The translations under genes and the position numbers were made by a program. The notes beneath the pieces are model-generated. The model did not search any database. It was not told the DNA's origin and saw only the letters and a program-made list of their open reading frames with translations. 64,000 nt of DNA from Octopus vulgaris. Lineage: Eukaryota. The stretch lies in NCBI GenBank assembly GCA_951406725.2, contig OX597814.1, forward strand, positions 31,000,001 through 31,064,000, read 5' to 3'. Of this stretch, positions 3,385 through 58,805 are shown piece after piece. The stretch's first letter is position 1, and every line of letters begins with the position of its first letter.

Positions 3385-5210
3385 TGCAAAAAAACAACAA
3401 CAAAAGACGAAGACAGGTGGTGTAGACAACAAACAGATGTATTAGTTTAACGCTCGGTAAGTGAGAAAGTCTTTTACGTTTCGAGCCTAAGCTTTTCGAC
3501 AGAACGGAACACAGAAAGAAACAGGGAGAGAAAATAAAAAAATTATTAGTGGCTAGAGACCAATCATGGCGAATGCCGGACAGAGGGGTCACACGGATAA
3601 CGTTTAAAATTCAAATTTGCTTTTTAAAGATTTTTTTAATCTTTGATTTACAGACATATACATATACAATATATACATATATCTACACAATACTCATATT
3701 TGCATGCATGTACATACTCATACACTCACATACACAACACACAGCACATGCACAGACGTACACACACATACATCTACACATACGTACACACGTATCAATC
3801 TATGTACGCTCATACTGTTATATATAACTACATATATGTATTTCAGTATCATGCATCTCAACATGTATGTAAGGATTTCGACATGTAAATGAGAGAAAGT
3901 GGCGGTTATAGAGAGGTACTCCTGAGTGGAATATGGGTGTTAACCCATTCGGATTTACGGTTGAGAGTTTTGTATTCTTGTATACAGACAGCTTCAGTGA
4001 CTTGTCTCACCATTGCATCAGTGGGATGTGTAGATAAGATGTTTAACTTGAGTCTCCTTAAAAAGCCCTTGTGGCAGTCTACAGCATGCTGAAAGAAGAT
4101 GGATTTTGATTTCTTTTCAATGTAGTTGTCCAGGTGTTCTTTGAGCCTATCATTTATGCTCCTACAAGTCTCACCAATATATGACTCTTGGATAACGCGC
4201 ATGCTCCTTCTTGGTACTTAATTTGGTAAACAGTGTTCTTCGTTTTGCAGTTCACATGTGGGTTTGTAGAACGTATTGCACAATTATTCTGACACGTGAT
4301 TCTAGCAAATGGATATGATCTACTTAATACAGATTTGATAGTCCTACCCGTATATTCTACAACTTTGATCTTAAGGCCAGTTGTGCGCAGGATTTTCTTA
4401 AATGCCTTACTTACTTCGTTCTTAGGTGTAGCGTCAACAAACATTACAATGTGAAACTTCTTGTTATCATACCAAGTATTGTTTTTATTTCTTTCGTTGT
4501 TGTCCGTCTCCAACCTTTTCCAGAACTTGTTGTGGTATAGGGGGCATATACCGTTTTCGTCATCTCTTAGAATACGTTCGAATTTTGTTTTCGCTCATTT
4601 GTACACTCTGATTCTATCGTATTGTGTGTATCCGGAACGTTGCATTCGGAATATGTAGTGCTGGATGTGTTGTTGTCGTTCTTGTGGTTAGCATAGTGGG
4701 GATACATTCCTCATTACTCTAACTAAGTCTGCCACCAGGATGTTGATCTTGGTAGTACTCGACATCGCTGAGTCACTGCGGATTACCAGTGGATTAGCCA
4801 TAGGTTTACAATAGTGTGAGAGGATTAAACAGGGTTTAACAGTTATATTAATCATAGTATTTTCTATCCACAGCTCAGTATCGTGGACTGGCAATCTATA
4901 ACTGGGGCGTTTAGAGGGGTTGTCTACGGTAACCTATGCTATGGATAGAGTCAGCTGTGTGTCGTATAGCTGTCATCACCTGTTCTTCATTTAATAGTGT
5001 CCATACGTGTATTACTATTACTTTTCACAAGTTTATTATCGTCAACGTATCGAGTGTACATAGCTAAAAGTGGATGTTACGGGTCGCTAGGCACCGTTTA
5101 AAATGTCTGTCCCACCATACCATGAAGAGGTTAGCAACATCACCGGCGATCCAACAGTACCGCTTTTCATCCGTTTATACAATTTATTGTTAAATGTTCA
5201 AATGTAGTTT
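3385..5210 (-). pseudogene. Decayed Penelope-like element (RT C-terminus, linker, GIY-YIG, 3' terminal repeat)
   Basis: RYVDD is encoded at 5038-5052 (-). ORFs 4688-4894, 4154-4513 (CKTKNTVYQI) and 3906-4202 (YIGETCRSINDRLKEH) follow in order. A hammerhead-like terminal repeat lies at 3470-3507. Confidence 0.8.
3470..3507 (-). ncRNA. Minimal hammerhead-like motif (CUGUCGA variant)
   Basis: ccguu-CUGUCGA-AAAGCuuagGCUC-GAAA-CG-UA-aaaga. Same family as 43144-43181 and 57858-57895. Confidence 0.4.
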
Positions 5211-8787: not shown

Positions 8788-8822
8788 ATTTCTGATGAAG
8801 AGCTCCGTTCGAAACGTGAAAT
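8788..8822 (+). ncRNA. Degenerate minimal hammerhead motif in a Penelope-type terminal repeat
   Basis: auuu-CUGAUGA-A-GAGCuccGUUC-GAAA-CG-UG-aaau. The cleavage position is G, so it is likely inactive. The downstream sequence recurs at 59040-59090. Confidence 0.4.
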
Positions 8823-9304
8823 CCTTTCTTTTCTTTCCTCTCCTGAACGTCCAATAACACAGTACTTGTGCCACGTCCTCGCGTTGTTGTTTTTTCTTGC
8901 TTGTTCTTATATGGATTGAATATGCATGTATATATGATGTTGTTTTTGTGTCTCCTTTTGACTCAAAGCCGTAGGGCGCCTGTGTCATCCATGTTTTTAA
9001 CCGTTACTGTCTTCAAAAAAGTTTTTTTCGTTTCATGTTCGTCTCTGTTGCGTTGCATTCTTTCCTTCTGGGGCTGGCCGATTCAGAGCGGATCTCAGAA
9101 TTAAACAGCCGAAATCTGCGATGAGGAATCGGTTTCTGACTGAAGAACGAAGGCTTTGAATGACCCGTCTGTCTCTTATGTTCGTCCCTTCGTGTATTTC
9201 ACGTTATTTATTTATGTAAAGGTTTATTATTATATTTTATATATATATATGTATATATATGTATGTATATATATATGTATATATCTATATATGTATGTAT
9301 ATAT

Positions 9305-12300
9305 AACATAAGGGACTAAAGCCATCTGAATATGGCTAGGGACAGGGCAGGGTGGTGGGGGTGTTACTGTTGCATTTAGCCCCAGGCGAACATCGACGTC
9401 ACCAGAAAGGCTCGACACCGTCACGGTGCCCTAAACCTGCAAAGGGAGGTAATTCCCCGATGAAGCGGAAACCACACACGGACCATGGTTTCAAGGTGTA
9501 TTGCCTATCATCGGCGTGTGGTAGGCCTCCGCTTCCTCGACGAATTCTCTCTCTGCAGGATTTTCTTATATAGATTTTCAAGCAAAATAAATTTGCTGAT
9601 TTCGAAAATCTGTTCGAAAGCAATAATAATTCTCTAAAAGGAATATAGACAGTAACTGCTCGACAACATAAGGGACTAAAGCCATCTGAATATGGCTAGG
9701 GACAGGGCAGGGTGGTGGGGGTGTTACTGTTGCATTTAGCCCCAGGCGAACATCGACGTCACCAGAAAGGCTCGACACCGTCACGGTGCCCTAAACCTGC
9801 AAAGGGAGGTAATTCCCCGATGAAGCGGAAACCACACACGGACCATGGTTTCAAGGTGTATTGCCTATCATCGGCGTGTGGTAGGCCTCCGCTTCCTCGA
9901 CGAATTCTCTCTCTGCAGGATTTTCTTATATAGATTTTCAAGCAAAATAAATTTGCTGATTTCGAAAATCTGTTCGAAAGCAATAATAATTCTCTAAAAG
10001 GAATATAGACAGTAACTGCTCGACAACATAAGGGACTAAAGCCATCTGAATATGGCTAGGGACAGGGCAGGGTGGTGGGGGTGTTACTGTTGCATTTAGC
10101 CCCAGGCGAACATCGACGTCACCAGAAAGGCTCGACACCGTCACGGTGCCCTAAACCTGCAAAGGGAGGTAATTCCCCGATGAAGCGGAAACCACACACG
10201 GACCATGGTTTCAAGGTGTATTGCCTATCATCGGCGTGTGGTAGGCCTCCGCTTCCTCGACGAATTCTCTCTCTGCAGGATTTTCTTATATAGATTTTCA
10301 AGCAAAATAAATTTGCTGATTTCGAAAATCTGTTCGAAAGCAATAATAATTCTCTAAAAGGAATATAGACAGTAACTGCTCGACAACATAAGGGACTAAA
10401 GCCATCTGAATATGGCTAGGGACAGGGCAGGGTGGTGGGGGTGTTACTGTTGCATTTAGCCCCAGGCGAACATCGACGTCACCAGAAAGGCTCGACACCG
10501 TCACGGTGCCCTAAACCTGCAAAGGGAGGTAATTCCCCGATGAAGCGGAAACCACACACGGACCATGGTTTCAAGGTGTATTGCCTATCATCGGCGTGTG
10601 GTAGGCCTCCGCTTCCTCGACGAATTCTCTCTCTGCAGGATTTTCTTATATAGATTTTCAAGCAAAATAAATTTGCTGATTTCGAAAATCTGTTCGAAAG
10701 CAATAATAATTCTCTAAAAGGAATATAGACAGTAACTGCTCGACAACATAAGGGACTAAAGCCATCTGAATATGGCTAGGGACAGGGCAGGGTGGTGGGG
10801 GTGTTACTGTTGCATTTAGCCCCAGGCGAACATCGACGTCACCAGAAAGGCTCGACACCGTCACGGTGCCCTAAACCTGCAAAGGGAGGTAATTCCCCGA
10901 TGAAGCGGAAACCACACACGGACCATGGTTTCAAGGTGTATTGCCTATCATCGGCGTGTGGTAGGCCTCCGCTTCCTCGACGAATTCTCTCTCTGCAGGA
11001 TTTTCTTATATAGATTTTCAAGCAAAATAAATTTGCTGATTTCGAAAATCTGTTCGAAAGCAATAATAATTCTCTAAAAGGAATATAGACAGTAACTGCT
11101 CGACAACATAAGGGACTAAAGCCATCTGAATATGGCTAGGGACAGGGCAGGGTGGTGGGGGTGTTACTGTTGCATTTAGCCCCAGGCGAACATCGACGTC
11201 ACCAGAAAGGCTCGACACCGTCACGGTGCCCTAAACCTGCAAAGGGAGGTAATTCCCCGATGAAGCGGAAACCACACACGGACCATGGTTTCAAGGTGTA
11301 TTGCCTATCATCGGCGTGTGGTAGGCCTCCGCTTCCTCGACGAATTCTCTCTCTGCAGGATTTTCTTATATAGATTTTCAAGCAAAATAAATTTGCTGAT
11401 TTCGAAAATCTGTTCGAAAGCAATAATAATTCTCTAAAAGGAATATAGACAGTAACTGCTCGACAACATAAGGGACTAAAGCCATCTGAATATGGCTAGG
11501 GACAGGGCAGGGTGGTGGGGGTGTTACTGTTGCATTTAGCCCCAGGCGAACATCGACGTCACCAGAAAGGCTCGACACCGTCACGGTGCCCTAAACCTGC
11601 AAAGGGAGGTAATTCCCCGATGAAGCGGAAACCACACACGGACCATGGTTTCAAGGTGTATTGCCTATCATCGGCGTGTGGTAGGCCTCCGCTTCCTCGA
11701 CGAATTTCTCTCTGCAGGATTTTCTTATATAGATTTTCAAGCAAAATAAATTTGCTGATTTCGAAAATCTGTTCGAAAGCAATAATAATTCTCTAAAAGG
11801 AATATAGACAGTAACTGCTCGACAACATAAGGGACTAAAGCCATCTGAATATGGCTAGGGACAGGGCAGGGTGGTGGGGGTGTTACTGTTGCATTTAGCC
11901 CCAGGCGAACATCGACGTCACCAGAAAGGCTCGACACCGTCACGGTGCCCTAAACCTGCAAAGGGAGGTAATTCCCCGATGAAGCGGAAACCACACACGG
12001 ACCATGGTTTCAAGGTGTATTGCCTATCATCGGCGTGTGGTAGGCCTCCGCTTCCTCGACGAATTCTCTCTCTGCAGGATTTTCTTATATAGATTTTCAA
12101 GCAAAATAAATTTGCTGATTTCGAAAATCTGTTCGAAAGCAATAATAATTCTCTAAAAGGAATATAGACAGTAACTGCTCGACAACATAAGGGACTAAAG
12201 CCATCTGAATATGGCTAGGGACAGGGCAGGGTGGTGGGGGTGTTACTGTTGCATTTAGCCCCAGGCGAACATCGACGTCACCAGAAAGGCTCGACACCGT

Positions 12301-12583
12301 CACGGTGCCCTAAACCTGCAAAGGGAGGTAATTCCCCGATGAAGCGGAAACCACACACGGACCATGGTTTCAAGGTGTATTGCCTATCATCGGCGTGTGG
12401 TAGGCCTCCGCTTCCTCGACGAATTCTCTCTCTGCAGGATTTTCTTATATAGATTTTCAAGCAAAATAAATTTGCTGATTTCGAAAATCTGTTCGAAAGC
12501 AATAATAATTCTCTAAAAGGAATATAGACAGTAACTGCTCGACAACATAAGGGACTAAAGCCATCTGAATATGGCTAGGGACA
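9305..12583 (-). mobile_element. Tandem array of 360-bp hammerhead-containing units (putative non-LTR retrozyme), about 9.1 copies, ribozyme sense on the minus strand
   Basis: Exact 360-bp periodicity, with a single 1-nt deletion near 11707. Hammerheads at 9475-9520, 9835-9880, 10195-10240, 10555-10600, 10915-10960, 11275-11320, 11635-11680, 11994-12039 and 12354-12399. Confidence 0.8.
9475..9520 (-). ncRNA. Minimal type I hammerhead ribozyme (first of 9 minus-strand copies)
   Basis: CACACG-CCGAUGA-uAGGcaauacaCCUu-GAAA-C-CAUG-GUC^-CGUGUG. Confidence 0.75.
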
Positions 12584-13707
12584 CGAGCAGTTACTGTCTA
12601 TATTCCTTTTAGAGAATTATTATTGCTTTCGAACAGATTTTCGAAATCAGCAAATTTATTTTGCTTGAAAATCTATATAAGAAAATCCTGCAGAGAGAGA
12701 ATTCGTCGAGGAAGCGGAGGCCTACTCACACGCCGATGATAGGCAATACACCTTGAAACCATGGTCCGTGTGTGGTTTCCGCTTCATCGGGGAATTACCT
12801 CCCTTTGCAGGTTTAGGGCACCGTGACGGTGTCGAGCCTTTCTGGTGACGTCGATGTTCGCCTGGGGCTAAATGCAACAGTAACACCCCCACCACCCTGC
12901 CCTGTCCCTAGCCATATTCAGATGGCTTTAGTCCCTTATGTTGTCGAGCAGTTACTGTCTATATTCCTTTTAGAGAATTATTATTGCTTTCGAACAGATT
13001 TTCGAAATCAGCAAATTTATTTTGCTTGAAAATCTATATAAGAAAATCCTGCAGAGAGAGAATTCGTCGAGGAAGCGGAGGCCTACCACACGCCGATGAT
13101 AGGCAATACACCTTGAAACCATGGTCCGTGTGTGGTTTCCGCTTCATCGGGGAATTACCTCCCTTTGCAGGTTTAGGGCACCGTGACGGTGTCGAGCCTT
13201 TCTGGTGACGTCGATGTTCGCCTGGGGCTAAATGCAACAGTAACACCCCCACCACCCTGCCCTGTCCCTAGCCATATTCAGATGGCTTTAGTCCCTTATG
13301 TTGTCGAGCAGTTACTGTCTATATTCCTTTTAGAGAATTATTATTGCTTTCGAACAGATTTTCGAAATCAGCAAATTTATTTTGCTTGAAAATCTATATA
13401 AGAAAATCCTGCAGAGAGAGAATTCGTCGAGGAAGCGGAGGCCTACCACACGCCGATGATAGGCAATACACCTTGAAACCATGGTCCGTGTGTGGTTTCC
13501 GCTTCATCGGGGAATTACCTCCCTTTGCAGGTTTAGGGCACCGTGACGGTGTCGAGCCTTTCTGGTGACGTCGATGTTCGCCTGGGGCTAAATGCAACAG
13601 TAACACCCCCACCACCCTGCCCTGTCCCTAGCCATATTCAGATGGCTTTAGTCCCTTATGTTGTCGAGCAGTTACTGTCTATATTCCTTTTAGAGAATTA
13701 TTATTGC

Positions 13708-13708
<1 letters not shown>
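12584..13708 (+). mobile_element. Inverted block of the same 360-bp unit, about 3.1 copies, ribozyme sense on the plus strand
   Basis: Reverse complement of the left block, starting at cgagcagttactgt (12584) and ending in (TA)n at 13709. Hammerheads at 12727-12772, 13087-13132 and 13447-13492. A 1-nt insertion lies at about 12726. Confidence 0.8.
13087..13132 (+). ncRNA. Minimal type I hammerhead ribozyme (plus-strand copy), predicted cleavage after 13126
   Basis: Stem I 13087-92/13127-32; core CCGAUGA 13093-99; stem II AGG/CCU; GAAA 13115-18; stem III AC-CAUG-GU; GUC triplet 13124-26. Confidence 0.75.
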
Positions 13709-13783
<75 letters not shown>

Positions 13784-30060: not shown

Positions 30061-30559
30061 AGGTAGCTTATCCTGTACCCCTCCGACTTTAGCATATGCA
30101 ATAAAAAAAACCTATTATTTATGGGATGACACAATATATATACTCACACAATTATTTATACATATGTACATGTGTATATATATATATATTATGTATATAT
30201 GCATAAATGCATTAACCTCTATGTGTCTATGCCTGTGTGTGTGTGTCGAATCTAAATAATAGGGAAGAAATATATACCAACACAAGATACATATGCGATG
30301 AGACCGTAGTACAATGCAGTAGAGTAAGATGGGGATGCTAACCAACATTCAAAGGGGAACAACGCTAGAAAATCCTTCACAGGTATGGAAATTAAAGAAC
30401 GAACCGCCAGAAAGAGCAGCACTGAAATTAATATCCGTGAGGAATTCAGAAATAATACCGGACCGGAAGTAGGAAGAAAAGGAGAGATTTTTTGTGAAGT
30501 AAATGACGCAATAAATAATACAAATAGAAAAAACAAGTGTATGCAACTGTGCAAGAAAT

Positions 30560-30935
30560 AAGATATGCCCATTGCATTTAAGATGTAAAACTAGGAACCT
30601 TGGAAGTTAGAGAATACTTTTATATAGGTACCAGCTTTCTGTCTTTCGGAAAAAGAGTGGCCAGTCATTTAAATTCCTTTAGAGATAGAAAAAATATTAA
30701 TATAAGCCTAAGTAAACTAATTTGGTCAATTAAAAACAAAAACAATAGCTATTCTTTCGATTCGGAACTAATTAGTACTACTAAGCCTTATCAATTAGAG
30801 GGAAATAGATGCGACCTCTGCGTAGAGGAGTTTTACCAAATATTTACATCAAAACACGCATTAGTTTATACAAGACACGAACAAGCCTTGAGATGTTTAC
30901 ACAGGCACATACTGACCTTTAAGAGATATAGATAA
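30560..30935 (+). pseudogene. Penelope-like GIY-YIG endonuclease fragment
   Basis: YFYIGTSFLSFGKRVASHLNSF...LSKLIWSIK...PYQLEGNRCDLCVEE...CLHRH. Confidence 0.8.
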
Positions 30936-33629: not shown

Positions 33630-34420
33630 AAAGGCGGCAAGCTACCAGATTCATTTGCAGGCTAGGAAAAGTGCATAGCGACATTTCGTCCGTCTTTAAT
33701 TTCTGAGTTCATTCCGCCGAACTTGGCTTTGCCTTTCATACACTTGGGGTCGATAAAATATGTACCAGTTGAGCAGTGGGTGGATGTAATCGACTTCCTC
33801 TCTTCCCCGAAATTGCTGGCCTTGTGCCATAATTTGAAACCAGTCGATTAGATCAACCCCAGTACGCAACTGGTGCTTAAGTGTTCGACCACGAAAGGAT
33901 GAAAGGTAAAGTCGACTTTGGCGGAATTTGAACACAGAACGTAAAGACAGACGAAATACCTATTTCTTTATTACCCACAAGAGACTAAACATAGAGGGGA
34001 CAAACAAGGACAGACAGGTAATAAGTCGATTACATCGACCCCAGTGCGGAACTGGTACTTATTTAATCGACCCCGAAAGCATGAAAGGCAAAGTCGTCCT
34101 TGGCGGAATTTGAACTCACAACGTAACAGCAGACGAAATACCTATTTCTTTACTACCCACAAGGGGCTAAACACAGAGAGGACAAACAAGGACAGACAAA
34201 CGGATTAAGTCGGTTATATCGACCCCAGTGTGTAACTGATACTTATTTAATCGACCCCGAAAGGATGAAAGGCAAAGTCGACCTCGGCAGAATTTGAACT
34301 CAGAACGTAGCGCAGACGAAATACTGCTAAGCATTTCGCCCGACGTGCTAACGTTTCTGCCAGTTGGCCGCCTTAACGTAAAGACAGACGAAATACCGCT
34401 AAGCATTTCGCCCGGCGTGC
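33630..34420. mobile_element. Cluster of a second tRNA-derived SINE family (OR1-like, Nin-type central domain): one + copy then several nested - fragments
   Basis: Repeated tcgaccccgaaaggatgaaaggcaaagtcgacctcggcagaatttgaactcagaacgta, the reverse complement of 46135-46310. Confidence 0.8.
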
Positions 34421-47869: not shown

Positions 47870-48259
47870 TTGTCTAGTAATTCTAAGATTAAGAATTCTA
47901 TTTACCAGTGTAGAATTTCTTCCGGTACCGATGTCTTCTTCTATATAGGAGCGTCCACTTCCCAGTTATCCAAGAGAATTTCAAACCATTATTCAACATT
48001 CAGGGATAGTAAAAAACGACATAGTACAGGGCTAAGTAAATTAGTTTGGCGGTTTAAAGACAACAATATAAATTTCAAGTTAGATTGGTTCATACTGTCT
48101 GTATCCTTTCCTTTTGATAAGGGCAGGAGATTTTGTAACATTTGCAACTCTGAACTCTTCCATATTCTCTTCTCTAAGGTTCCCCTTGTAAACACACTCA
48201 GAGAAAAATCATACAAATGTAAACACTGGCAGAAACATACTTTCTACTCATATAAATGA
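47870..48259 (+). pseudogene. GIY-YIG endonuclease domain of the Penelope-like element
   Basis: Open 129-aa frame with GIY-YIG and C-terminal Cys/His motifs; the upstream RT is missing. Confidence 0.85.
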
Positions 48260-51209: not shown

Positions 51210-51268
51210 ATTCAACCGATGACGGCAAAGCTTGTTTAAAGCAAAGCTAGAAATCCAGGATCTTGAAT
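51210..51268 (+). ncRNA. Type I hammerhead-like motif with a CCGAUGA core
   Basis: AUUCAA-CCGAUGA-cGGC...GCUa-GAAA-UCCAGGA-UC^-UUGAAU. Confidence 0.6.
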
Positions 51269-54186: not shown

Positions 54187-54235
<49 letters not shown>

Positions 54236-54289
54236 AAGTAACAAGAGACGGATTTTGGTTCGCTCACTATAGCTGTTTCAGACAAGTTT

Positions 54290-56280
54290 TTATTAATGAA
54301 TAGAATTATTACATCATGCGAAGAAAAACGTGAATGCATGCTTGAATTAATCATTTCAAGAGATTTTGAAATACAAGTAGGTGCCAAACCTTGTATAACA
54401 ATGATCTACTACACTAAATCTGACTTGGTTCGAATTAGTAAGTGCATTATCAACAGAATTCTACCCCTAGTTAAGTCTAAGGTTAAGCTTCCGCTTTGGA
54501 ATTGCACTGGTGACGTTATCATCTTTCTGAAAAACAGCACACCCATTTCCTCCAGTTTGACACCTCCAATTACAGTTGTTCCATATCACCAATTCTCTTC
54601 AATAAAGCCTTAATCTCGCTCGAAACTACGAACCTATATCACGATCTGACATTGATATCATCCTGGCTGCTAGGAAAACTCTAATCCACTTCAAAGATAA
54701 TTACTAGACCTGCAACGCATCTACCGATTTCTTCGATATAACCATGGTCTCCTCTGACTCAGCTTATTTGACTTAACCTATTCCTTCTTTTCCCAATTAA
54801 ACAATACTCCTCTAAATCTCTTCGGAGGACACTGGAGTGATGATGCACTCCTTAAACCCTTTGAATTATCTCGACCTTCTGTGGAACGCATCAATAAAGC
54901 CCTACATAATCTCTTTAAAAACTACAACCTAAGTATCTCATTGGAGAACGACACTAAGGTGGCCAATTTCTTAGACGTTACTCTGGACTTCAATGCAAAT
55001 CTATATCCCCATTTCAAAAATCCCAGTCAATCTCTAAAATACATAAACGTCCTATCAAATTACTTTAAACTTACCCTTAATCGTGTAGTCACAGGCATTT
55101 GTATCAGAATCTCCAATAAAGAAATTTTTATCAATCATGCCCCGTATCATAACCAGGCTCTAAAGATAAGTGGCTTCTGCGAAAAGATCTCATATATCCC
55201 CAATACTATGCTTAAAACAAAATTTGCTCATCTCTTGCCTAATACTGACCCCGAACCCCCACTGATCTTTCTTCCACTCAACGACAATCCATCAGCTCAT
55301 AAAAAAAAAACTATGCATCGCACTCGACAGCCCCACGAGCCACCTCGAACCTATAATAACTATAATCCTCCCTATCTAGACTCACTCTATCCACACGCTC
55401 TAAACATTCTAAGGGCAGGAAATGAGAGATCAAATGGTTCACATCACCTTACTCACTTTAAGTTAAATCTCTACCCAAAATTTTCTTTAAAATCCTAAAA
55501 TCTAACTTCCAACCACAGCATAAATTCTACCTTACTTTTAATAGATCATCTGTTAAACTCTTCTATCTACCACACCTAATTTGGGATCTATAATTGCTTC
55601 CTCTAACAGACAAAAACTACAATTTGTCCGGCTGAACATTGCTGTCACCCATCTAGTGGCAATAATCCACTCGACTAAATAATAACAGATCGAAGGCATC
55701 TTCCATACAATACTACCTATATGACCACATATACTAATGATCATACCCCCTCCTAATTCAAAACTTATACCGATGATATCTCCAGTTCTTCTTTACTAAA
55801 AACGGACTATTGGAACTTGACCTTCTCAGTGGTAAACTCCAACCAAAGAGCAGGTAGGAAAACTTGCAATTGTTGGGTAACTCATAGTCTACATGTACCG
55901 TGTAGACTACATGTAGACACATACTCTACATGTGCTACGCTCCCTCAAAGCAAAGGTCTATATCAGTGGTATAATGTCAATTTCAAGCGACGCTATCGAG
56001 CACACATGAATATATCTGTAATCCAAATTCTAAATTATCTATCCCCTTAGAAACTTACATACACACCCTCAAATCCCAAAATGTTCTCTATACACTATCC
56101 TGGTCCATCGTAAGCGAGGCACCCCGATACAACGCAAACATCTGTATTTGTAAATTGTGTGTAAGGGAATTGCTAACCATCCTTCGCAACCCCTCATTAA
56201 TTGATAGATTCTCAGATGTAATACTCTCTTTTATACATAAGTGCTACTCATCATTTGCCCATTTTATTAAATCTATGTAA
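54290..56280 (+). pseudogene. Decayed Penelope-like element (RT and GIY-YIG remnants)
   Basis: KSDLVRISKCIINRI, an xxDDAL-like segment at about 54835, VANFLDVTLD...KYINVLSN (ORF 54881-55498), and C-terminal WSIV...Y...CKLCVRE at about 56100-56170. Confidence 0.75.
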
Positions 56281-57933: not shown

Positions 57934-58767
57934 ATACTTTGATACTTTGATACTTTGATAGGTTTCGGCCATTATTGGCCCAGGCCATGTCTAACTTAAT
58001 AGCATCACCTGGTGAAGTCTTTCAAGTCAGAATTTGGGCACTATGGCCCACTCAAGTAGAGAGTTATTGTTTACAGAGGCATATCCGGGTGTAGGGGGTT
58101 TATCCGGGATTTCTTGAAGGAATCTGTCCAAAGACTTCTTGAACCCTATAGGGTCAGTTTCTGTTTTAATGTGTTTTGGTGTAATGTTAAAGAGAGCGGG
58201 GCCAATTGAGGTGAAATAATTGTGCCGTATTGTTGTTATGAGATGAGAGTGCGATTTTTGTTTTGGGCGGATGGCACGGGGCCCAAGCCTTGGATGTACC
58301 TTAAAGGTGATGCCAACATCATTTGGGCAATGCTGATGGAATATTTTCCACATCATGCAGATGATGTAGCGCTCACGACGACGTTGGAGAGAATAGAGTT
58401 TTAGCTTTTCTAGTCGACCCCAATAGTCGAGGCCTGTCATGCCATCTATCTTTTTTGTGATTGCCCTTTGAGGTGCTTCGACTTTTTTGATACCTTGTAT
58501 TGTGTGGGGAGACCACAGTGGACAACAGTATTCAAGGTGGGGTCGGGCAAAAGTGGAGAAGAGAAGGATAATGGTGTGGATATCTCTCGACTGGAAAGTT
58601 CTGAGAATCCAGGAACACATTCTGCGGGCCATGTCAACTTTGGTGTTTATATGAGTGGCCCAGCTTACGTTGTTGTCCACAATTACTCCCAAGTCTCTGA
58701 TGTTGTTGGACGCCGCACTTACGTTGTTGTCCACAATTACTCCCAAGTCTCTGATGTTGTCTCTGAT
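57934..58767 (-). mobile_element. 5'-truncated CR1/L2/Jockey-group LINE (ORF2 C-terminus) with a tandem 3' tail
   Basis: Open frame RDLGVIVD...[14 protein letters not shown]...LKLYSLQRRRERY...FKKSLDRFL..IPD.P, a short 3' UTR and a (tcaaagta)n tail at 57935-57960. Confidence 0.9.
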
Positions 58768-58805
58768 ACATATATATACATACATACATATATATCTTTA
58801 TCTAA

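Follow-up and report, generated by a model that had tools for sequence, protein, structure and literature searches.

The array of 360-bp repeats at positions 9305..13708 of the window (64,000 nt of Octopus vulgaris contig OX597814.1, from position 31,000,001 to 31,064,000) is one insertion of a dispersed and young hammerhead-bearing family, an additional member of the non-LTR retrozymes whose mechanism is unusually readable. The insertion sits within a (TA)n tract, is flanked by a 10-bp target duplication and has its two arms head-to-head. By analogy this footprint is that of a Penelope-like element (PLE), i.e. an inverted copy plus a tail, the PLE reverse transcriptase (RT) starting at two internal sites. 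We consider two-site priming of the PLE type very probable, and think it probable that the repeat is a non-autonomous, non-LTR retrozyme mobilized in trans by a PLE.

The insertion and its family

The 360-bp unit has a GC content of 46.7% and repeats with 99% matches, in keeping with the period and near-identity of copies reported in the first-pass annotation. The two 1-nt indels reported there are a deletion near 11706 and an insertion near 12726, and the unit is non-coding as claimed, its longest ATG-started frame being 50 aa. The 12 units do not form the one tandem run that had been described: 9.1 units on the minus strand meet 3.1 units on the plus strand head-to-head. Neither this inversion nor the duplicated target site and its (TA)n setting had been part of the earlier description. 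The insertion reads as follows.

9295..9304, plus strand: left target-site duplication, 10 bp (12 bp counting ambiguous edge bases), terminating a (TA)n-rich tract
9305..12583, minus strand: left arm of 9.11 units with the ribozyme on the minus strand, running from unit position 321 at its inner 5' end to site A (unit position 360) at its outer 3' end
12583..12584, unstranded: head-to-head arm junction, blunt, zero overlap
12584..13708, plus strand: right arm of 3.12 units with the ribozyme on the plus strand, running from unit position 3 at its inner 5' end to site B (unit position 46) at its outer 3' end
13127..13486, plus strand: 360-nt monomer between two predicted cut sites, which would form the circular RNA
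13663..13708, plus strand: 46-nt tail from site A to site B, absent from the other end of the insertion
13709..13718, plus strand: right target-site duplication, followed by (TA)n up to ~13990

No Pfam-recognised host gene was found among the 106 frames of the 64-kb window, and no LTR arrangement was seen in the mapped loci.

Across the genome, exact junctions with TA number 541 for the A end and 444 for the B end, with 0 for controls, and many units are 99-100% alike. The expectation that dispersed arrays would have differing endpoints held for the dispersal and for the inner ends, which vary, but not for the outer ends, which are restricted to two sites, A and B, 46 nt apart. Among 104 loci, chosen by best hit or exact end pattern and so biased to young copies and standard ends, 80 complete two-armed insertions were found; A is paired with B in 78 of these, and neither A-A nor B-B pairs occur. 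Arms span 0.2-14.7 units. Since tail-to-tail junctions are absent from 81 loci, the ribozyme strand is always the template. Targets are AT-rich or (TA)n, with a staggered-nick footprint of ~10 nt, and a permissive search gave target duplications in 12/16 informative insertions, nine of them clean by eye. Dispersed insertions with fixed ends and target duplications, together with the hammerhead covariation described below, support the earlier reading of a recent non-LTR retrozyme arising by reverse transcription, not an ordinary satellite.

Metazoan non-LTR retrozymes have a non-coding tandem unit of 150-450 bp (350-390 bp in mussels), GC below 50%, a type I hammerhead per unit and a target duplication of more than 4 bp (PMC7229834). 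The octopus family matches the coral, mussel and axolotl retrozymes in unit size, GC, a hammerhead per unit, absence of coding and duplication of more than 4 bp. It differs from them in its U4C core, and while cleavage and circles were demonstrated there, the octopus family is known from sequence. Further differences from those retrozymes, as described in the main text of PMC7229834, are the head-to-head arms, the fixed ends, the tail and the (TA)n target; in that main text the words 'inverted', 'microsatellite', 'octopus' and 'cephalopod' do not occur. We found no report of such a retrozyme from a cephalopod in the literature; subscription papers, repeat databases or supplements may list one. 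A 2026 octopus repeat paper uses none of the terms ribozyme, hammerhead and retrozyme.

The predicted hammerhead ribozyme

The hammerheads are real. There are 12 in 12.2 units, the number counted in the first-pass annotation, and nine of the 12 lie on the minus strand because that strand holds 9.11 units against 3.12 on the plus strand:

9475..12399, minus strand: nine hammerheads, predicted cuts 12360, 12000, 11641, 11281, 10921, 10561, 10201, 9841, 9481
12727..12772, plus strand: type I hammerhead with its predicted cut after 12766 and a 1-nt insertion immediately upstream
13087..13132, plus strand: type I hammerhead, predicted cut after 13126; its 6-bp stem I is part of a long extended helix, the core has U4C, a U·U is followed by a 3-bp stem II, and the 2-bp stem III has a palindromic loop
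13447..13492, plus strand: type I hammerhead, predicted cut after 13486

The earlier description of stems I-III, of the CCGAUGA core and of the GUC holds good, and the predicted sites coincide with the plus-strand cuts at 13126 and 13486 named there, the third being at 12766. A hairpin reported elsewhere in the unit (CACCG-uca-CGGUG) had been read off the antisense strand.

Two features make the core non-canonical, U4C and U10.1·U11.1. The Rfam/Infernal hammerhead search that had been suggested gave no match, either at gathering score across the 64-kb window or at E<=10 across 12945-13400; judged by its sequence, this weak core variant (U4C, U·U) escapes Rfam. A U·U at the base of helix II is also present in axolotl HHR_Amex2, and axolotl ribozymes perform better as dimers (PMC7229834). 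U4C considerably reduces hammerhead activity in vitro, and 8/9 Xenopus retrozyme dimers failed to cleave in one study.

A relaxed hammerhead pattern has 2841 matches in the genome versus 7 for the reversed control. Conservation and covariation of the stems, looked for among genomic copies, were seen in four families: across 14 sequences 98.4% of cells are paired and both sides have changed in 9/13 pairs, as against 0/500 shuffles and at most 52% for slid controls. Core positions 3-4 differ among subfamilies (CC, UU, CU). The unit folds much better than its shuffles (z -7.4; circular fold z -5.3). In the monomer ensemble stem II has a probability of 0.08 and stem III of 0.0, and the minimum-energy fold of the dimer contains an 8-bp double-hammerhead stem III. 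The covarying stems and the palindromic stem III loop would fit cleavage as a double hammerhead, and we regard the ribozyme as likely to be active, chiefly as a dimer.

A probable one-unit template

Divergence is 0.40% (77/19063) between the two arms of an insertion and 3.3% between insertions, and arms are identical in 49/75 comparisons within insertions versus 605/5992 between them. Substitutions private to an insertion recur in all of its scored units, 22/22 at locus L048 and 8/8 at L100 (in both arms), 11/11 at L049 and 7/7 at L043; of the 29 private variants present in both arms, 14 stem from a single diverged locus. Because these substitutions fill every unit of both arms, they point to one unit-length RNA as the template of one insertion, most simply a circle. 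A-to-I editing, considered as the source of the private variants, found no support (outside L184, template-level variants comprise 6 A>G and 4 T>C).

We lean towards a covalent circle as the main template. A less probable account keeps PLE-type two-site priming and takes as template either a linear oligomer that remains because the ribozyme is weak or a cut monomer re-entered by template jumping. The weak hammerhead core agrees with this, as does the anole PLE, for which the ribozyme was dispensable for insertion in vitro and unprocessed RNA was the main substrate (PMC11167929). Positions mixed among units occur in two arrays (position 128 in L048, position 232 in L196), and these count against a circle because a single unedited circle would not predict them. 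For arms longer than one unit, 8/96 inner ends fall at unit positions 185-192, just past the cut site, versus 2.1 expected, in an interval picked post hoc and with a peak that is weak across all 181 arms; run-off at a ribozyme-made 5' end would give such a peak, which is an indirect hint of self-cleavage and suggests some linear templates. Against a linear template, the insertion-private substitutions occupy all 8-22 units in both arms, and for a linear source the parent array would have to be uniform over as many as 15 units and would itself need a single-unit origin. Template jumping sits poorly with the 218/327 hammerhead regions read that are letter-identical across the cut site, where no jump scars are evident. 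As to the earlier proposal of rolling-circle copying of a 360-nt circle, the private substitutions common to all units of single insertions speak for it indirectly, while linear oligomers are compatible with the data as well. A 390-nt contig joining the unit's end to its start, present in 3/4 runs that are not recorded as RNA, would arise equally from a circle or a tandem.

Probable priming at two sites and the Penelope-like elements

EN+ PLEs leave an inverted 5'-truncated copy, a tail at one end and 8-10 bp duplications in AT-rich or (TA)n targets, with two internal RT starts and both strands cut and extended (PMC11167929, PMC3846280, 10.1101/2021.04.23.441226). Anole Poseidon, Adineta Penelope and Naiad/Chlamys have the inverted copy, tail, target and duplication in common with the octopus insertions. 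The octopus tail measures 46 nt against the 30-40 bp published for PLEs, and the retrozyme is unlike PLEs in lacking RT and endonuclease and in having up to 15 whole units per arm. A young intact PLE of the same genome has the same geometry and the same target, with a tail of ~67 nt versus 46.

The inverted ends and tails of PLEs have been ascribed both to self-priming (PMC3846280) and to two-site initiation (PMC11167929). Fold-back self-priming of one cDNA, by which PMC3846280 explains the palindromic junctions of Penelope, would suit the several arm junctions that are perfect palindromes here, and the gap between the inner ends of the arms along the unit, which is at most 20 nt in 20/64 insertions versus 7.3 expected. 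By fold-back the A arm could be no longer than the B arm less its tail, yet it exceeds this length in 30/62 insertions, and the window insertion has an A arm of 9.1 units against a B arm of 3.1; insertions whose longer arm is the tail-less one favour priming from both ends. Fold-back is thus contradicted as a general mechanism, and we hold it very unlikely; it may account for some short insertions. Still less likely is LINE-driven twin priming of the L1 type. The head-to-head geometry and target duplications are compatible with it, and RT-like fragments are present in loci of the family. The B arm of the window insertion begins 2 nt from site A, which we rejected as a sign of twin priming, since B arms begin near A in 4/62 insertions, about as expected by chance; moreover the second priming site does not vary, and a poly(A) tract was seen at neither end of the insertion. 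Least credible are an assembly fold-back artefact, in-place expansion of an ordinary satellite, and a product of DNA-circle or Helitron type: near-identical tandem units, and mixed positions that could be polishing errors, would allow them, but they are opposed by the two fixed ends found at hundreds of dispersed sites, by the target duplications, by the single template polarity and asymmetric arms, and by the same architecture in a family ~75% alike.

A partner PLE was sought by sequence. The unit has no significant similarity to a PLE family of about 90-95% identity (29 loci), to a young 717-aa family or to 13 further PLE 3' stretches, several of them decayed, and no pLTR homology among the PLE families whose ends were read. 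No frame with RT plus GIY-YIG lies within the unit or is joined to any arm, nor is an ORF joined to the arm in another 20 loci, of which 19 are A ends for which no partner end is listed. The sole Pfam result was a weak GIY-YIG hit, and a homolog search returned 941 relatives, nearly all unnamed. The mobilizing PLE may recognise RNA shape, with no sequence in common with the retrozyme. Li, Clavereau and Pollet (bioRxiv 10.64898/2026.07.22.740005), studying vertebrates, three insects and a coral, propose that retrozymes are non-autonomous PLE derivatives; 'tail', 'head-to-head', 'mollus' and 'octopus' do not occur in the text of that preprint. A PLE enzyme for animal retrozymes was proposed there from co-occurrence and pLTR homology, whereas the link drawn here rests on the insertions themselves, which bear the mechanical footprint of a PLE.

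The following mechanism is proposed. (i) The ribozyme strand of tandem copies would be transcribed. (ii) Adjacent hammerheads would use their palindromic stem III loops to pair with each other and would cut the transcript to unit length, and a host ligase would circularise the monomers, as reported for other animal retrozymes. (iii) Staggered nicks ~10 nt apart, seen in the footprint, would be made in (TA)n or AT-rich DNA by a presumed GIY-YIG endonuclease. (iv) Reverse transcription would be primed by both 3' ends on one RNA variant, with starts at site A and, 46 nt downstream, at site B, as the footprint indicates. (v) Each cDNA would circle the template for 0.2-14.7 units and halt at variable points. 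(vi) The cDNA ends would be joined, often by hairpin microhomology, giving the head-to-head arms and one-end tail of the footprint; overlaps of at least 4 nt occur at 20/80 arm junctions versus 1.8% at random.

In its most specific form, which we put forward tentatively, a dimeric Penelope-type enzyme would act on a single covalent 360-nt RNA circle, carrying out two simultaneous rolling-circle reverse transcriptions, one from each end of a staggered cut, with starts 46 nt apart. Retrotransposition of circular RNA has so far been a hypothesis, and the variants filling all units of both arms support a one-unit template. If two rolling-circle reactions do run on one circle, the insertions would provide genomic evidence for circular-RNA retrotransposition in an animal and a general account of the head-to-head-plus-tail structure of PLEs. 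Because the family is young and the genome holds intact young PLE frames, the system could be rebuilt in vitro from the 360-nt RNA and its two predicted starts.

Architecture and genomic distribution of the 360-nt family

Although 9305-13708 had been read as a single tandem array of near-identical 360-nt units, and the 360-nt period and near identity stand (the two 1-nt indels are differences among the window units), Tandem Repeats Finder resolves two arrays of period 360, of 9.1 and 3.1 copies. Mapping onto one reference unit puts the 9.1-copy array on the minus strand and the 3.1-copy array on the plus strand, their 5' ends meeting bluntly at 12583/12584. In unit numbering, the outer end of the left arm lies at 360 (site A) and that of the right arm at 46 (site B). 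TA-rich sequence borders both sides, with a flanking repeat:

9295-9304: G-interrupted 10-mer, left of the array
13709-13718: the identical 10-mer, right of the array

Scoring 40 of 544 candidates gave at least 321 genome matches to the unit, many of them 99-100% alike, spread over many contigs of the 2.8-Gb genome; exact end junctions number 541 for A-end/TA and 444 for B-end/TA. The first-pass annotation had anticipated dispersed arrays with varied permutation endpoints; there are hundreds of dispersed junctions, but outer ends fall at two sites and only inner ends vary.

We mapped 104 loci (the window, 20 best-match loci, 58 from end lists C1, 22 from end lists C2-C3 and three from a relaxed pattern), a sample skewed toward young copies with standard ends. 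These hold 80 complete two-armed, head-to-head insertions, plus one cut by the locus edge. With unit positions 340-4 scored as A and 36-49 as B, 39 insertions pair A-B, 39 pair B-A, two have one non-standard end, and none is A-A or B-B. No tail-to-tail junction occurred in the first 81 loci. The remaining loci are single arms or fragments, whose outer end is mostly A or B. Arms (n = 181) exceed one unit in 96 cases and three units in 31, reaching 14.7. Among 16 insertions with flanks other than plain TA, a permissive search found a target duplication of at least 9 letters in 12, nine of them clean by eye.

A second family (about 355 nt, roughly 75% alike, core often canonical CUGA) has ends 44-46 nt apart, with both ends and geometry as in the 360-nt family, and additional families are also present. 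Four or more other families of hammerhead repeats share the unit's layout and have compensatory hairpins around site A; they lie in these loci:

L046:7930-8491
L141-L165, L167, L169, L175, L233
L036:1600-1850
L109:9280-9510

Two insertions are complex (L050:3331-6116; L204:5213-6001), one interleaved with other sequence and one two-armed, with a near-duplicate a short distance beyond it. The whole unit (window 13127-13486) also occurs at 95-99% likeness in runs X13 and X16, labelled as two other organisms.

Priming and template

A single template polarity, duplications left by a staggered cut and inner ends of variable position together indicate that the insertions were made by target-primed reverse transcription. 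The strict pairing of A with B implies that both target-DNA ends prime together, as a single coordinated event, at the fixed RNA sites A and B. Such coordinated two-site priming matches the behaviour of Penelope-like elements (PLEs), for which the sources describe an inverted truncated copy whose one end bears a tail of 30-40 bp (10.1101/2021.04.23.441226), target duplications of 8-10 bp (PMC3846280), and cutting and extension of both strands by an enzyme with two internal start sites, which bound the tail (PMC11167929). Fold-back is not the general origin of the inverted arm, because the tail-less arm exceeds its limit in 30/62. Palindromic arm junctions are enriched (20/64) and BLAST-measured junction overlaps of at least 4 nt occur in 20/80, as expected if the two cDNA ends, of like polarity, were to anneal through hairpins of the unit.

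Sequence difference is 0.40% between arms of one insertion vs 3.3% between insertions, so both arms derive from one template variant. Private substitutions, absent from all other loci sampled, fill every scored unit of single insertions (22/22, 11/11, 8/8, 7/7), the outcome given by repeated copying of one unit. As to the form of that template, two observations speak against a pure circle: long-arm inner ends peak directly after the predicted hammerhead cut (after unit position 184; 8/96, Poisson P 0.0016, in a peak window picked after the data were seen), and two arrays have positions mixed among units. The peak indirectly supports cleavage in vivo and the use of some linear or nicked templates.

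Among array-wide private changes of the youngest copies, four of six are A>G within the long helix extending stem I:

L048: unit positions 115 and 128, the latter mixed among units
L049: unit position 120
L046: unit position 212

The A>G changes could be fixed A-to-I editing; a wider count of variants showed no strand bias.

The hammerhead ribozyme

The type I topology first noticed by eye was found in every unit: a 6-bp stem I within a long helix, a CCGAUGA core (U4C), a stem II of U·U plus 3 bp, and a stem III of 2 bp with a palindromic loop. Rfam hammerhead models, the check proposed at that stage, gave no scoring match to the window or unit sequence. A relaxed pattern, fixing core and loop II letters and requiring no pairing, hits 2841 genome places vs 7 in the control, and there are 851 exact copies of the window hammerhead. 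In the loci scanned (27 overlapping ones excluded), the stem III hexamer is CCAUGG, CUGCAG, CCUAGG, CUCGAG or CAUAUG in 324/327 motifs, most being near-identical copies.

Covariation of the stems among copies, one of the points on which the retrozyme reading had been staked, is borne out: in a hand-picked set of 14 sequences covering four families, pairing holds in 98.4% of cells and 9/13 pairs change on both sides, with pairing down to 11-52% in slid controls. Two of the 13 scored pairs are self-complementary loop positions that can pair only between two ribozymes. Since relatedness among the sequences can be enough to beat the shuffle control, the case is carried by the slid control and the palindromes. 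The best predicted fold of the dimer contains the double-hammerhead stem III; in the monomer circle stems II and III are improbable. The literature describes a short palindromic helix III as the mark of cleavage as a dimer (PMC4209133), U·U at the stem II base as natural and tolerated (PMC3088659), and U4C as reducing in vitro activity while still supporting a viroid. We infer that the unit's ribozyme is active. At core positions 3-4 the youngest copies have CC, older copies UU, and sister families CU or CC (subfamilies in L031-L215), and therefore the latest active lineage has the variant core.

Core-like motifs in the left flank (8792-8825 and about 9140, plus strand) fail the stem filter and are possibly old PLE terminal repeats; one further weak motif, at 51216, passes it.

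Penelope-like elements and related retrozymes

A young PLE in this genome (at least 99 scored matches of 99-100% identity, many within 717-aa open frames) has a 2590-bp tandem unit whose 717-aa frame is RT plus GIY-YIG-like. It occurs at:

L216:609-7853
L217-L219
L198:3985-6001

Its insertions in (TA)n are head-to-head; in five loci most outer ends lie close to two sites separated by about 67 nt, which gives a tail of about that length. They show that this footprint belongs to PLEs here. It carries a hammerhead-like motif, likewise with U4C; no significant sequence is shared between it and the retrozyme, nor any by the other PLE families read. The young PLE is well suited to in vitro work.

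Every retrozyme feature tested at the DNA level was found, and our search returned no literature report of a cephalopod retrozyme. PLE mobilisation has been proposed for retrozymes (PMC7229834; bioRxiv 10.64898/2026.07.22.740005), but cephalopods, tails and head-to-head arms are absent from the main text searched of the former and the text searched of the latter; the part of PMC13282606 consulted leaves ribozymes unmentioned. The value of the present family is that its insertions record the mechanism clearly and yield exact bench predictions.

Elsewhere in the window lie decayed PLE fragments of other families, at 54232-56280, 47870-48256 and 30536-30932 (plus) and 3909-4217 (minus), the last with a weak GIY-YIG match in Pfam. 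A 256-aa frame at 58030-58797 (minus), without Pfam match, resembles the terminal part of a LINE reverse transcriptase, and a 182-bp repeat at 33842-34324 (2.6 tandem copies at 86%) has the look of a SINE array.
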